From Pseudobdellovibrionaceae bacterium (lineage in GTDB: Bacteria; Bdellovibrionota; Bdellovibrionia; Bdellovibrionales; Bdellovibrionaceae), in NCBI GenBank assembly GCA_039810425.1, contig JBDHWW010000016.1, forward strand, positions 1 through 64,000: a stretch of DNA of 64,000 nucleotides. The letters run 5' to 3'. Position numbers and translations under genes: made by a program. Positions within the stretch are counted from its first letter, which is position 1; every line of letters begins with the position of its first letter. Below are positions 14,131-19,102 of the stretch, in pieces. The notes below the pieces were generated by a model. It worked only from the letters and a program-made list of their open reading frames with translations. It was not told the origin of the DNA and did not search any database.

Positions 14131-14817
14131 ATGAAGTCCAAGGTTATCTTAGTCATTGACGACGAGTCCTCGATCCGTAAGTTTTTACGGATCAGCCTCG
14201 AGGCTCAGCAGTTTGCGGTCCACGAGGCGGCAAGTGGGCGGGAGGGTATTCAAGAAGTCGTCGGCAGAAAACCGGATCTTATTATTTTGGACTTGGGCCT
14301 TACTGATATGAGGGGCCTGGATGTCATCACAAAAGTTCGTGAGTGGTCGTCAGTTCCGATCATAGTTTTGACCGTCCAAGACTCTGAAGACGACAAAGTT
14401 CAGGCACTTGATACCGGGGCCGACGACTATTTGACAAAACCCTTTAGTGTTCCGGAGCTGATGGCGCGCATTCGGGTCGCTCTTCGGCACTCACAGCCCG
14501 TACCGCTCGAAGCGGTTTTTAAAACTGGCGATTTTGAAATGGATTTCGCGGGTCATATCGTGAGAACCGGCGGCACCGAAGTGAAGCTCACCGCCACCGA
14601 ATTCAGTCTTTTGCAGGTGCTGGTTAAAAACGCCGGTAAAGTCGTGACTCACAGAATGTTGCTCAAAGAAGTGTGGGGCCCGAACTCGGTCGAGCATACA
14701 CAGTATTTGCGCGTTTACATGGGGCAGATTCGCAAGAAGCTAGAAGCCTCTGAGGACGGTCCGGAGCTGATTGCGACCGAAGCCGGTGTGGGCTATCGTT
14801 TTTTAATTCAAAAGTAA
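14131..14817 (+). CDS. kdpE: Response regulator KdpE
   Basis: Receiver (DDE, LDLGL, TKPF) plus OmpR wHTH (YLRVYMGQIRKKLE, GVGYRF). Confidence 0.96.
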   Translation: MKSKVILVIDDESSIRKFLRISLEAQQFAVHEAASGREGIQEVVGRKPDLIILDLGLTDMRGLDVITKVREWSSVPIIVLTVQDSEDDKVQALDTGADDYLTKPFSVPELMARIRVALRHSQPVPLEAVFKTGDFEMDFAGHIVRTGGTEVKLTATEFSLLQVLVKNAGKVVTHRMLLKEVWGPNSVEHTQYLRVYMGQIRKKLEASEDGPELIATEAGVGYRFLIQK

Positions 14818-16185
14818 TTTGCCGGGTTCGAAGGTGAGCGTGCGGCTCGCAAGGCGCGTGTCTTGTTCTTGACGGTGGCTGATAAATACCAAACGGCGGT
14901 CGGCTTTGCCGTCGACCCAATCTTTGAGAAAGGCCTCTACCAGAGTGGTCCTTTCGTTATCAAGGGCGGCGGTGATTTCATCGAGCAAAAGTACTTTGGG
15001 ATCAAACTGCAAACTTCGTAGAAGATGCACAATCTGCGCCTCTCCGCCGGACAGAGTCATCGCATTTTTTTGGAGCATTTCAGCCGTCATGCCGAGCTTC
15101 ACAAGATTTTTCTGAAAGAATTCTAGTTTTAGCGGCTCTCCATGGTGTTTTTTAAAACGAAGCGGGTATTGCAAGTTCTCAAGCACGCTGCCCGGGACAA
15201 AGTACGCTTTTTGCGGCACGTACATCATGGTGCCGGCATCAGCTTGATACATTTCCAAGTTCTCAGGCAATGTGATGTGTTTGTAAAAGTCGGCGACGTC
15301 CAAACCAACCAAGGATTTCAGCAGGCGACTTTTACCGACGCCTGAAGGTCCGCGCAGTAGAACTTTTTCCCCGGCGGTAAAGTTAAAACACAATCCTTGT
15401 GGCTTTTGCAACAACCACACCGGCATAAAATAGAAATGCGTGATAAAGATCGCTGCCAGCGCACCCAGCATGGCGGTAAAAGTGATCATGAACATAACCA
15501 GAATCTGAAAACGCGCTGCCAGCAAGGGATCTACGCCACCGATGAGCTGGCCGGACATCACTCCAGGGAGGCTCACGATCCCGACAATCGTCATACCATT
15601 GATCATCGGAGTCAGGGCGTTGCGGAGGATTTCATTATAAAGCCGGTGGCAAGCTTCAAAGGCCGTAGCGCCGAGGGCTTTCATCGTTTCAATTTCTAAA
15701 AGACTTTCGCGGCGGGCTCGTTCGAGGCCGACAAAGCTGAGAGAAATCGCCGAAAGGGCATTTCCCATCAGAACACCCATAAAGGGAATAAAGAACAGGC
15801 TTTGTAAAAACGCTTCACCGCCGAAGAACAGCTGAATGGTCATAAATCCCAGCGGCCAAACGCTTGCGAAGATGGCGACAAAACTGGCGAGATAGATGCG
15901 CCAGGTTTTTTCTTTCAAACGGGAATAAGAAGCTTGGGCTGCCACCAAGGTCATCACCAGGAGAGTGAGCAAATTCGTGGCTAAAGAGTCCGCATGCAAA
16001 AGCCAGCGAAGGAGGTAACCAATCGCGATCAGCTGGACGATGGTGCGAAGGGAGGCGACGAAAAGGTCTTTGCCCAAATTCAATTTAAAAAAACCGGAGA
16101 TGGCAATCGCAATGGCAATAAAGACAAAAGCGCCAAGAATTTGCCAATGACCGAAATGCTGAGTGTAAAAAGCCGCCGTTGTCAT
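14803..16185 (-). CDS. Fused FetB/YbbM (UPF0014)-type ABC permease + FetA/YbbL-type ATPase
   Basis: N-part VQLIAIGYLL, IPFMGVLMGNA, ALGAT, GIVSLPGVMSGQLIGGVDP; C-part GPSGVGKS, LSGGE, LLLDE, ISH. Confidence 0.85.
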   Translation of the reverse strand: MTTAAFYTQHFGHWQILGAFVFIAIAIAISGFFKLNLGKDLFVASLRTIVQLIAIGYLLRWLLHADSLATNLLTLLVMTLVAAQASYSRLKEKTWRIYLASFVAIFASVWPLGFMTIQLFFGGEAFLQSLFFIPFMGVLMGNALSAISLSFVGLERARRESLLEIETMKALGATAFEACHRLYNEILRNALTPMINGMTIVGIVSLPGVMSGQLIGGVDPLLAARFQILVMFMITFTAMLGALAAIFITHFYFMPVWLLQKPQGLCFNFTAGEKVLLRGPSGVGKSRLLKSLVGLDVADFYKHITLPENLEMYQADAGTMMYVPQKAYFVPGSVLENLQYPLRFKKHHGEPLKLEFFQKNLVKLGMTAEMLQKNAMTLSGGEAQIVHLLRSLQFDPKVLLLDEITAALDNERTTLVEAFLKDWVDGKADRRLVFISHRQEQDTRLASRTLTFEPGKLLLN

Positions 16186-16187
16186 AG

Positions 16188-17360
16188 TTATGAGCCGAAG
16201 ATCTTATTCAGCTGGATTCCCTTTGAGCCTTTAAAGTAGACCACATCGGCCTGTTTGGCCAGGGATTCCACGGCGGCTTTTGCTTCGAGCGCCGTTGCGA
16301 AGTGAAGAGTTCTATCTTTCGGCAAGCCTGTCACGTTACCGTCGGTTATAAACCGGGCTTCGGAGTCCACAGTAACCAGGGTCAGAAAGCCGGCGGCAAT
16401 GACCTCATGAAACAGGGTGCCAATAGTGCGGCCGAGTTTTTGGTGCTCAGCCTCGGAGGAGGCCCCGAGTTCCAGCATCGTGCCCAGCACCAGCAGGATT
16501 TTCATATTCTTGGTTTGTTTCAGTAAGTGATGAAGGCCTTCGCGCATGCTTTCGGGGCTTGCATTAAACGCATCATCAATCGCCAAACGGCCGTGCCAGT
16601 GAAACGCTTGAAAACGCCGTTCCACGGCATGGAATTCAATCAGACGTCGCGCCACATCTTGAGCTGGAATCCCAAGGGCCACGACCGACGCCATCGCGGC
16701 TGCGATATTGAGGCCCTTTTGGGGGCCTCGGAACGGGCACTCGATAAAGACGTCTTTTTTCTGAAATTTCAAGTAAACCCCCTCCGCTCCTTCGCGCAGG
16801 AGTTCAACATCAGCCGCGGGACCGGTGCCGAAAGTGATGACGTGTTTACCTTGTTCGCGGGCATGCTTCACAATACGGGCATCCTCTGAAGGAACCACCA
16901 CCGTGTGCACGCTTTCAAATCCCAGGGGCGAGAGTTTTTCACGAATCAGATTTTCAAGCGAGCCGAATTCACCGACATGAGCGCTGCCTATATTGAGTAA
17001 TGTCACAATATCGGGGCGCACGTAACTTAAAGGGGTTTGAAAATCGCCCAGGCGACGGGCGCCAATTTCAAAGACGGCAGTGGCTTGCTCCTTGGGTAAG
17101 CGCAAAACCTGTAGCGCCAGGGCCAGCTTGGTGTTTTGATTTGCCGGAGAAACAAATGCATCCCTCAATAGGTGCCCGAGAATTTCTTTGACGGTGGTTT
17201 TGCCGGCACTTCCGGTGATGGCCGCGACCTTCACGGGCAAGCCCCTGCGGCGGCGGCGCGCGGATTCAAACATAAATGTTCTGAGGTCCGCGGCCGGGGG
17301 CTTGAGAAGGCTTTCCGGAGGAGGGGGGCCTTCAAGAAGTTCGAAGCTCAGTCGTTGCAT
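16188..17360 (-). CDS. MurF-like Mur ligase lacking most of the N-terminal domain
   Basis: AITGSAGKTTVKE, VFEIG, NIGSAH, DDAFNASPESM, LGTMLELG, KGSKG; start taken at MQRLSF (17360), 1 nt after the upstream stop. Confidence 0.8.
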   Translation of the reverse strand: MQRLSFELLEGPPPPESLLKPPAADLRTFMFESARRRRRGLPVKVAAITGSAGKTTVKEILGHLLRDAFVSPANQNTKLALALQVLRLPKEQATAVFEIGARRLGDFQTPLSYVRPDIVTLLNIGSAHVGEFGSLENLIREKLSPLGFESVHTVVVPSEDARIVKHAREQGKHVITFGTGPAADVELLREGAEGVYLKFQKKDVFIECPFRGPQKGLNIAAAMASVVALGIPAQDVARRLIEFHAVERRFQAFHWHGRLAIDDAFNASPESMREGLHHLLKQTKNMKILLVLGTMLELGASSEAEHQKLGRTIGTLFHEVIAAGFLTLVTVDSEARFITDGNVTGLPKDRTLHFATALEAKAAVESLAKQADVVYFKGSKGIQLNKIFGS

Positions 17361-17361
17361 T

Positions 17362-18465
17362 TTACGCTCTGAAATGGCTGCGCTCACGAAGCACGTCGTG
17401 AATCGACTTGTTTTTGTTGTAAATTTCAAGCATCTCATCCGCCGGAGTTCTTCCCGTCGCCAGGCGCTCAGTGAACACTTCAAGAGCCCCCGGGTCATAA
17501 CCCCAATCGCGTAAAACCGCGGGCGCACGCTCTAAAAGTTCATTGGCGCGTTCCTTCATCTCTTCAGCGGCAAGACCCTTGCTGGCAACTTGGCCTAAAT
17601 CATAAATACGGTTTTGCTTGGTCGCTCGTCCCAGGAGTCCCTCATCCAAAGTCAACGCCAGGAATGACAAAAACTGCGCTTCGATTTCACGCAGGGAATT
17701 CGGCATATCAAACACCTTGAATTCGTAACGGTTTTTCTCTGTCGGGTGGAATTCAATCGGAGGAGCGATATAACTGCGTTTGTGCATACGGAAGCTCTTG
17801 CCAGGTTGGCCACGGATCTGCCACGGAGCTCCGTTCATAAATGGTGAAGCGACACTTAAGGCGGACAACGCCGGGCCATAGTAGTTAATCTTAGCCTCAA
17901 AATCTTTTTCGGAAATCATCTCGGCCAGGACCGGCGGCAAGCTGACGTTAATATCCGGACCATAAGTCGTCATCACTTCCATGGACCACTGCCAATAGTC
18001 ATGACGGCGTTTATTCTGTGGTCCCGAGAATTGCGATTCCATCGGGTGGTGGGACAAGGCCACCAAGTCATAGCCATGGGTATTCATAGCTTCTTTCAGT
18101 CGCGCATAGAGAGTCTTATGAACGCTGAGACATTCTGCGAGGCTCTCGCAAACAGGCGTGCGGATTTCAACCCCTTTTGGCAGGATTTCTTTGGCGTGGA
18201 AATCCATATCCGGCAGGTGATAACCCTCAACCACAAAGGGCATGAGTTTCGTCTGTGGCGGTTCGAGATCCAAACCTTCGCAAGAAGGAATATCTGCGAG
18301 AGAAATAGATTCGAAAATACCATTGAGCGTTTCAAAAGTCAGGTGCTGATGCCAGAGAGGGGTGAAGTCCTCTTGACGAACCACGAGATACTCGGACTCT
18401 AGGCCAAAACGAAACGATTGGGCAAAGCATTTTTTCTCTTCTGGAGAGAACTGGGTGAACTTCAT
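17362..18465 (-). CDS. Glutamate--cysteine ligase family 2 (GCS2/YbdK-like) carboxylate-amine ligase, diverged
   Basis: FGLESEY (GxExE), VEIRTPVC, SHHP, ALSALSVASPF, RYEFKVFD. Confidence 0.75.
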   Translation of the reverse strand: MKFTQFSPEEKKCFAQSFRFGLESEYLVVRQEDFTPLWHQHLTFETLNGIFESISLADIPSCEGLDLEPPQTKLMPFVVEGYHLPDMDFHAKEILPKGVEIRTPVCESLAECLSVHKTLYARLKEAMNTHGYDLVALSHHPMESQFSGPQNKRRHDYWQWSMEVMTTYGPDINVSLPPVLAEMISEKDFEAKINYYGPALSALSVASPFMNGAPWQIRGQPGKSFRMHKRSYIAPPIEFHPTEKNRYEFKVFDMPNSLREIEAQFLSFLALTLDEGLLGRATKQNRIYDLGQVASKGLAAEEMKERANELLERAPAVLRDWGYDPGALEVFTERLATGRTPADEMLEIYNKNKSIHDVLRERSHFRA

Positions 18466-18474
18466 TGCAAACTC

Positions 18475-18981
18475 CTATAAATTATTTTGCTGGGCTTTGC
18501 GACGGGCGATGAAAGGCTGAAAGAAAACCGCGACACCGCTGAGAAGCAGGAAAAACACACAGATCGCACTTGGCAAGAAAATCCCATAGCGAATCCAGGG
18601 GCCGAATTCAGCCCCTTCGTGCAGGGACACGAGCAGTGAAACCCGGCGGGTTTTTGCACCCATGATTTTGCCGTTAGCCCCGTCGATTTGAATTTCAAGC
18701 ATATTTTTAGATCGCACGCGGATGTTGCCCGTTCCGGGGCGAATATCAATTTGCGAAATATCGTTCCACCCGGAAATCTGTGCATCAGGAATGGACTTCG
18801 CCACAGCGAGAATTTCAGTGAAGCCGATTTTCAGAGTGGAATTCACCGGAGGATATTGAGGCTGCACCCAGGTGTTAAAGCCACGGGAGGCCAGCAAAAT
18901 TCCGGTCACAACGGTCACAAGAAATGGAATGGCAATCACAATGGAAACCCAGCGATGCCATTTGCGTAGACGTCTCAACAT
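18475..18981 (-). CDS. PepSY-associated TM helix membrane protein
   Basis: LRKWHRWVSI...VTGILL, EIQIDGANGKI, LVSLHEGAEFG, LLLSG; start at MLRRLR (18981). Confidence 0.8.
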   Translation of the reverse strand: MLRRLRKWHRWVSIVIAIPFLVTVVTGILLASRGFNTWVQPQYPPVNSTLKIGFTEILAVAKSIPDAQISGWNDISQIDIRPGTGNIRVRSKNMLEIQIDGANGKIMGAKTRRVSLLVSLHEGAEFGPWIRYGIFLPSAICVFFLLLSGVAVFFQPFIARRKAQQNNL

Positions 18982-19073
18982 AAGAGCGGACTGTATAAGT
19001 GAACTTTTAATGAAGGGGAAGGATAAGCGGGAAGGGGAAGGGTCTTGATAGTTAAATGAAAAAAGGTCAGACG

Positions 19074-19102
19074 AAATTGAATGCAAAATTGAATGCAAAA
19101 TT
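19074..19102. repeat. 12-bp tandem direct repeat upstream of the PepSY operon
   Basis: AAATTGAATGCA x2 plus partial AAATT. Confidence 0.8.

Follow-up and report, generated by a model that had tools for sequence, protein, structure and literature searches.

Glutathione is made by two successive ligases, GshA (of the GCS2/YbdK or the plant GCL type) and GshB, or by the bifunctional GshF. In peptidoglycan synthesis, MurF is the UDP-MurNAc-tripeptide:D-Ala-D-Ala ligase, while FolC, CapB/PgsB, the M domain of CphA and CfbE are Mur-fold enzymes that work outside peptidoglycan. Among membrane systems, the FetAB transporter of E. coli and the plant STAR1/STAR2-ALS3 proteins have a UPF0014 membrane domain with a FetA-like ATPase, and FoxB and FpvG are PepSY_TM siderophore reductases. 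Here we describe a locus where relatives of all these proteins are encoded side by side, a four-gene operon in a 64,000-nucleotide stretch of DNA (the window) from a Pseudobdellovibrionaceae bacterium (positions 1 to 64,000 of contig JBDHWW010000016.1, assembly GCA_039810425.1).

The operon lies on the minus strand. Its first gene (18475..18981) codes for a half-size PepSY_TM membrane protein of 168 amino acids (PF03929, 40.1 bits, E 5e-10) and its second (17362..18465) for a 367-amino-acid carboxylate-amine (gamma-glutamyl) ligase of the GCL/YbdK fold from a small distinct subfamily (PF04107 (GCS2), 52 bits, E 7e-14). They are followed by a MurF-derived ligase paralog of 390 amino acids that lacks the N-terminal domain (16188..17360; Mur_ligase_M and Mur_ligase_C) and by a 460-amino-acid fusion of FetB (UPF0014) and FetA (ABC ATPase) (14803..16185; PF03649, 206 bits, and PF00005 (ABC_tran) in one chain). 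The open reading frames (ORFs), their order and the intergenic gaps of 9, 1 and 2 nt agree with the single operon proposed in the first-pass annotation. Pfam domains of all four proteins were above the cut-offs, and all four proteins scored under the NCBIfam cut-off of the nearest named family.

Our preferred reading, which we hold tentatively and with slightly less than even confidence, is that this module makes a gamma-glutamyl peptide for iron and redox handling in two steps, with the gamma-Glu-X product of the ligase optionally extended by the MurF paralog. In full-text literature searches, with most subscription papers and supplements outside their scope, we found no description of the gene set, of the ligase subfamily or of a MurF-derived small-peptide ligase; the module is apparently undescribed. 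The carboxylate-amine ligase neighbourhoods that the accessible text of PMC2588565 presents as uncharacterised are different ones, in which the ligase accompanies a glutamine amidotransferase-like peptidase or a cyclotransferase; the present gene set is not in that text.

A conserved core with an optional second ligase

The distribution of the module was determined in a phylum sample of 401 Bdellovibrionota genomes and in a second sample of 101 genomes of the family. Genes adjoining the ligase were identified in regions of 7-13 kb, some of which ended at contig edges. Since the sampled genomes are related by descent, the counts are descriptive and do not amount to a statistical test.

The ligase profile matched 27 of the 401 genomes. 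A half-size PepSY_TM gene stood beside the ligase in 26 of these 27 carriers. Fifteen carriers had fetB near the ligase, as a fusion with fetA in 6 and as a split gene in 9; ten had the Mur paralog, and two a stand-alone ATP-grasp ligase. The complete four-gene set appeared in the same order in 6 carriers with differing genomic surroundings. Gene order that recurs in different surroundings means that the grouping did not arise by chance, and the possibility that the order is confined to a single genome can be dismissed. The gene set is real and conserved. Eight carriers had PepSY, ligase and fetB with no Mur gene, four had PepSY, ligase and Mur with no fetB, and the flanking genes varied between carrier genomes. 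We conclude that the module is a core of ligase and PepSY, often with FetAB, to which a second ligase may be added, and not a fixed four-gene pathway. The first-pass annotation had joined the four genes in one pathway; an obligate pathway does not hold, as all four occur in only 6 of the 27 carriers, the ligase pocket is unchanged by the partner gene, and clean deletion of the Mur gene is seen in a close relative.

In the second sample, the ligase was found in 13 of the 101 family genomes. Full-length fetB was present in 4 of the 101, in all 4 within the operon, and there was one more weak partial fetB match elsewhere. The ligase family as a whole is small, with 212 representatives at E 0.001. 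Of the 41 distinct high-GC loci from metagenomes that lack PepSY, many of them on short contigs, 7 had fetB at most 2.6 kb from the ligase; in other high-GC loci the ligase was near ChrB, superoxide dismutase (SOD), DUF1259, MFS, Usp or gamma-glutamyl cyclotransferase genes. For example, at loci L071, L066, L103 and L104 the ligase is placed among ChrB, Fe/Mn-SOD, DUF1259 and two-component genes, which suggests a metal or oxyanion stress setting.

In the window, the operon has about the same GC content as the remaining sequence, and its nearest relatives (17 loci found) are mostly from Bdellovibrio or Bdellovibrionota. The 3' end of fetBA overlaps by 15 nt a convergent response regulator gene (14131-14817) which we take to be kdpE-like from its position behind kdp-like genes. 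A promoter and terminator scan gave signal at chance level only.

The two ligases

The predicted model of the GCL-fold ligase (pLDDT 95) had as its best structural match the plant GCL 2gwc (2gwc_A; Z 29.6, root-mean-square deviation 3.1, 311 aligned residues; Foldseek E 1e-14). It was followed by the YbdK-like 1tt4 (Z 28.7), GshF (Z 24.2), PafA (Z 22.4) and Dop (Z 21.2). On the strength of this model the ligase has the GCL/GS fold. At the sequence level the relationship is distant: the score against TIGR02050 (YbdK) was 44.8 bits with a cut-off of 176.4, other GCL/YbdK models scored lower, and searches of solved structures returned weak matches only.

All motifs listed for the carboxylate-amine ligase superfamily (GS fold) in the accessible part of PMC2588565 are present in the ligase and were near-invariant among 105 sequences. 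The strand 1 motif GhExE / Ex[EH] is G21-L-E23-S-E25, with both glutamates in 104 of 105 sequences and a gap in the remaining one. The acidic residues of strands 2 and 3, E80 and E100, are located on predicted strands and occur in 105/105, as does D171-I-N173, which corresponds to [HD]x[NH] on strand 4. On strand 6 the motif Ex[RK]x2D is E248-F-K250-V-F-D253 (K250 in 103/105; position 253 is D or E); the arginines of strand 5 and of the loop preceding it are represented by R246, R226 and R230. A regular-expression search of the source genome for the GatB motif found none.

A loop of the pocket, GPQNKRR[HY]D[FY]WxW, was identical in Mur-linked (19), ATP-grasp-linked (2), PepSY-only (31) and PepSY-free (53) ligases. 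As the same loop is found in every context group, all members probably make one product. A weak sequence alignment (E 0.12) places R154 and His/Tyr155 of this loop opposite the Arg-Tyr of plant GCL, and the accessible text of PMC6463388 locates Arg220 in the cysteine pocket region. Cysteine is therefore a plausible amino acid X. An extra arginine, Arg153, occupies the position of a glycine in plant GCL.

The fold is compatible with another kind of acceptor as well. PafA and Dop have the same fold, and the enzyme could glutamylate a protein or a siderophore or amine precursor instead of a free amino acid. The ligase gene that precedes a decarboxylase and an IucA/IucC synthetase at L097, and the MauG-like enzymes and small secreted proteins that adjoin the module in some lineages, would fit such a role. 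We consider it quite improbable, given that GCL and YbdK outscore PafA and Dop, that no conserved small Pup-like ORF was present in the neighbour clusters (ORFs of at least 70 aa were called), and that the siderophore context is a single locus.

At L097:2706-7199 the ligase-family gene is directly upstream of the pyridoxal-phosphate (PLP) decarboxylase and IucA/IucC synthetase genes, with a probable MFS transporter gene after them; the locus may be a siderophore cluster that uses a GCL-fold ligase. Tandem ligase duplicates were observed at L016:6902-9083, L138 and L098; the first copy at L016 is divergent, with Asn in place of the conserved Lys250.

Glutathione-related genes of the source genome include those for a CGFS glutaredoxin, another glutaredoxin and at least three members of the glutathione S-transferase (GST) family. 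PF04262 and PF02955 had no match in this genome (completeness 99.9%), which at first supported the ligase as its only GshA; this was rejected by a PF08886 GshA at G000:C1:155036-156286 (460 bits). PF08886 GshA was present in 100 of the 101 family genomes. The narrower idea that the ligase is the only GshA in GshB-bearing carriers was rejected too, as all five such genomes have a canonical GshA elsewhere (GCS2 in 4, PF04262 in one). Judged by these profile matches, the ligase is an extra enzyme beside a housekeeping GshA in every carrier checked. Its additional status counts against a plain GshA role, and in Mur carriers the place of GshB is still vacant. A strong GshB match was seen in none of the 10 Mur carriers (the best, E 5.5e-28, was partial, and genuine-looking matches had 1e-43 or better), nor in any of the 53 phylum-sample genomes that belong to the family.

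The operon Mur protein scored 233 bits against TIGR01143 (murF; cut-off 288.6). One could suppose that it is the only MurF of the genome, and the first-pass annotation had named this as a case in which its idea would fail. This was rejected, since a canonical full-length murF passes TIGR01143 with 398.6 bits and sits on another contig (C54) with murE, mraY, murD, murG and murC, in the dcw cluster. By the same comparison the operon gene is a MurF paralog outside the dcw cluster. A separate canonical murF was found, at the threshold used, in 9 of the 10 paralog carriers of the phylum sample (not in G215). The paralog scored above 520 bits in 9 of the 401 genomes, with a divergent tenth. All ten stand directly behind the ligase (gap of at most 13 nt, or with an overlapping called ORF), and no paralog away from the ligase was detected among the 401 genomes.

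In a FastTree phylogeny the 72 paralog clusters are monophyletic (support 100) and sit on a long branch, their nearest neighbours being three MurF sequences that retain TDSR. The P-loop residues G50, S51, G53 and K54, as well as E98, H128, K142, N218, R249 and D263, were present in 72/72 paralogs, and N266 in 71/72. The N-terminal TDSR and DGH motifs, which we take to be those that bind UDP-MurNAc, are altered. The arginine of TDSR was found in 46/46 canonical sequences and was not among the five commonest states in paralogs; DGH changed to NQH or DQH, and NNxxG.P to NTKxALA in a clade-specific loop. The N-domain motif was absent in 35 of 72 paralogs, in at least three separate clades, and was changed in the rest. 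The earlier description of the Mur ligase as truncated is thus right for the window copy (M and C domains, no N-domain) and wrong for the family, where 37 of 72 paralogs keep the motif. A longer start at 17528 was rejected; the extension overlaps the ligase gene and is without the N-domain motifs of relatives. The role of the carbamoylation-site lysine in Mur ligases is covered in PMC3060825, and the accessible portions of PMC10618370, PMC10214165 and PMC3060825 do not list the TDSR/DGH residues as UDP binders.

The paralog evolves quickly. Compared with its closest truncated relative, the window copy had a non-synonymous divergence (dN) of 0.115 and a synonymous divergence (dS) of 0.736, while dN of the ligase was 0.039, i.e., about three times lower. 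This rate, together with repeated domain loss and gene loss, could be expected of a decaying hitch-hiker. We regard decay as very improbable: dN/dS between the two truncated copies is ~0.16, the catalytic residues are invariant in 72 clusters, and one truncated clade contains 21 intact sequences. On these substitution rates the paralog is under purifying selection.

In genomes G280 and G400 and at locus L054, an ATP-grasp protein of 322-330 aa is encoded directly behind the ligase. Its best models were CphA (2e-66) and GshF (4e-42), both far under cut-off. Close matches among the 401 genomes were limited to G280 and G400; weaker ones were mostly proteins of ~900 aa, the size of cyanophycin synthetase. 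The strongest evidence for a second ligation is that two unrelated peptide ligases occur in one slot, and this evidence comes from one genus. In a quick ligase tree all Mur-linked and ATP-grasp-linked members fell into one clade of 26 (support 96), partnerless members included. The earlier idea of two sequential ligases is strengthened: in the sample Mur is found only behind the ligase, and ATP-grasp replaces it in two genomes. The second ligase is optional.

Probable iron and redox setting of the module

A conserved site of the type wTCAnTTRRyTwTCA, a probable transcription-factor site, is located on the minus strand at 19046..19060, ~65-80 nt before the first start codon. It was present in 13 of 14 hand-picked upstream regions, in 12 of them at 96-100 nt before the His-Arg-Trp codons of PepSY, and also in five loci outside the training set (L009, L018, L054, L135 and L153). 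A motif scan of the source genome gave 15 intergenic matches above 17 bits, a modest excess over the 0-12 obtained with shuffled matrices. By post hoc classification, seven of the 15 precede HiPIP, cytochrome c/SCO, Mrp, EtfB/probable SdhC, aconitase, BolA or Fe/Mn-SOD; weaker matches precede a desaturase and Rrf2-sufB.

The matches before Fe-S, haem, superoxide and suf genes of the source genome (G000) are at C12:47661, C12:55937, C7:37640, C17:36631, C2:107222, C14:7536, C13:17225, C9:25051 and C4:35253. The motif is distinct from canonical Fur boxes in the same genome; it could be an 11-bp direct repeat as for response regulators, or an Rrf2/Fur-family site. Three Fur-family proteins and an Rrf2 protein are encoded in this genome. 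Just upstream of the conserved site, at window positions 19066-19088, there is a short tandem direct repeat (~12 nt, two copies) that is absent from the relatives' upstream regions compared.

Boxes were also scored against the Fur consensus as we assumed it to be. Of 47 PepSY-linked loci, 13 were preceded by a Fur-like box of at least 12/14, compared with 0 of the 35 remaining loci (GC content is high at the PepSY-free loci). None of 30 shuffles reached such scores; at nine relatives' loci the score was 13-14/14. Neighbours of the module included Fe(III)-type binding proteins, imelysin, DHOR, MauG/MbnH-like di-haem enzymes, Fur and DtxR. An iron or redox link of the module, as had been suspected from the gene set, is likely in view of the Fur-like boxes, the site common to Fe-S genes and the iron-uptake neighbours. 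In one family a MauG/MbnH-like di-haem enzyme of ~700 aa is co-oriented directly before PepSY-ligase-fetB-fetA (L076:2-2047, L137, L145-L148).

The PepSY protein corresponds to half of a FoxB-type chain, with one PepSY domain and two conserved histidines. The two histidine columns were conserved in 57/59 and 59/59 sequences and an arginine in 53/59; H9 and H121 of the window protein were invariant in 19/19. FoxB binds two haems via transmembrane histidines in a four-helix bundle, according to the accessible text of bioRxiv 10.1101/2021.01.28.428567. By analogy, we infer that the PepSY_TM protein is a haem-binding reductase subunit and that it would act as a haem-bound dimer. A search of solved structures gave no sequence match for it.

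In FetBA, the Walker A, signature and Walker B motifs are intact in sequence. The best NCBIfam matches were FetB (133.6 bits, cut-off 410) and FetA (105.2, cut-off 292). No fetB was adjacent to 4 of the 10 Mur-bearing loci. An importer made of a binding protein and FetAB was not supported: a binding-protein gene was located within 4.5 kb in three of the 27 carriers, and none of these three has an adjacent fetB. At some other loci (L006, L007 and L050) both genes are present, and no homologs of the binding proteins were found in the source genome.

Secreted proteins were observed around the module as well. Two families of signal-peptide proteins of ~300-350 aa, with no Pfam or NCBIfam match and barrel-like by eye, are encoded within the operon or next to it in 9 of the 27 carriers (e.g., L004:11784-12698, L148:9660-10559, L068:2025-3095), with homologs elsewhere in the source genome (G000) at C21:37040-37912 and C2:80083-81030. 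A secreted trio (~125, 450 and 110 aa, with a weak Pepco match) recurs in several lineages next to the gene for the ligase or for PepSY (L056:4372-6476, L122:3243-5304, L149:3887-6047, L217).

Proposed mechanism and comparison with described systems

In the mechanism that we favour, the GCL-fold enzyme, as its family suggests, would activate the gamma-carboxyl of glutamate with ATP and join it to an amino acid X, for which cysteine is the single likeliest candidate. A MurF copy would have been recruited as the optional second ligase in one Bdellovibrionales lineage. The normal MurF acceptor also ends in gamma-Glu-X-COOH. With the UDP-MurNAc handle no longer needed, the paralog could activate the free carboxyl of gamma-Glu-X and add a small amino acid or dipeptide. 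The product would be a metal ligand or a reductant that works with the half-size, probably dimeric PepSY_TM haem reductase, and FetAB, often part of the module, may move iron, the peptide or their complex.

Several observations weigh against this mechanism. The ligase pocket is alike with or without a partner in all context groups, and 15 of the 27 carriers have no Mur or ATP-grasp ligase nearby, so the ligase product needs no extension. The carriers checked already own a housekeeping GshA. L015, a close relative, lost the Mur gene cleanly, with a 3' remnant left. In the high-GC metagenome members PepSY is absent and the surroundings are varied. The motif excess is modest. Fur-like boxes reach only ~10/14 in the window's lineage, which has the other conserved site; this site is not a canonical Fur box, and canonical Fur boxes occur elsewhere in the source genome. 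Finally, E297, H306, K377 and S379 on the acceptor side of the Mur paralog match canonical MurF, and the enzyme may therefore still take D-Ala-D-Ala.

There are other explanations. The genes could be co-regulated and chemically separate: the ligase would serve as a second, inducible gamma-glutamylcysteine ligase that buffers thiols and iron, PepSY_TM and FetAB would handle iron alone, and there would be no common new metabolite. The closest structure being plant GCL, the weak alignment of R154 and His/Tyr155 (E 0.12) and the majority of carriers without a second ligase are all consistent with it. We find it possible though doubtful, because the carriers checked already own a GshA and the two unrelated peptide ligases directly behind the ligase gene would be left unexplained.

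Alternatively, the Mur paralog could act on peptidoglycan fragments (for example, adding D-Ala-D-Ala onto a UDP-free stem tripeptide of the prey wall), or both ligases could build a stem-peptide mimic, gamma-Glu-diamino acid-D-Ala-D-Ala. Descent from MurF, the conserved acceptor-side residues and Arg153 in the ligase pocket would all suit a role of this kind. It appears unlikely to us: the paralog was never apart from the ligase in 401 genomes, annotated module neighbours included no recurrent cell-wall gene family, the regulatory and neighbour signals indicate iron, and an ATP-grasp enzyme is able to occupy the Mur slot.

A special case of the two-step peptide reading is that the MurF paralog is a Mur-fold analogue of glutathione synthetase, adding glycine or another small residue to gamma-Glu-Cys. 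We would not expect this specific version to be correct, but if it were, a family with glutaredoxins, GSTs and GshA but no GshB would gain its own glutathione-like tripeptide under iron/Fe-S control, and in a sister lineage a GshF-like ATP-grasp domain would do the same job.

The broader two-step reading hints at a small peptide, and at a new job for a classic cell-wall enzyme family, in some predatory bacteria. If the second step is true, MurF was converted into a peptide ligase for small molecules through loss of its UDP-sugar site, stepwise on the tree, and a new route exists to glutathione-like or metal-binding peptides. FetAB/UPF0014 transporters and half-size PepSY_TM proteins are both poorly understood; the peptide would give the former a candidate cargo and the latter a partner. 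It also bears on thiol and iron management in predatory bacteria that have glutathione-using enzymes but no GshB. Both ligases are small and soluble, and standard assays can identify their substrates.

The module can be compared with five described systems. With FoxB and FpvG, the operon PepSY protein has in common the TM-PepSY-TM unit, the conserved histidines with a nearby arginine and the iron-linked loci; it differs in being half-size, with one PepSY and two histidines. FetBA has the two domains of E. coli FetAB and STAR1/STAR2-ALS3, but it is a fused chain in 6 carriers, tied to the ligase and below the NCBIfam cut-offs. The Mur paralog has in common with MurF the middle and C-terminal domains, the P-loop, the carbamoylation-site lysine and the acceptor-side motifs; in contrast to MurF, it is a second copy with the N-terminal TDSR/DGH altered or the domain gone. 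Like FolC, CapB/PgsB, the CphA M domain and CfbE, it would redirect Mur chemistry to a substrate that has no UDP-MurNAc. Its score was 233 bits for murF compared to 30 for CphA and 32 for CfbE; the murF score is far higher, from which we infer a recruitment from MurF that was separate and recent. With the glutathione pathway, the module has in common the GCL fold and catalytic motifs of the first enzyme and a second ligase encoded behind the first, which in two genomes is akin to the ATP-grasp domain of GshF/CphA. Unlike in that pathway, the first ligase is far under the NCBIfam cut-offs and additional to the housekeeping GshA, and the second ligase of the source genome is of the Mur fold and not ATP-grasp.

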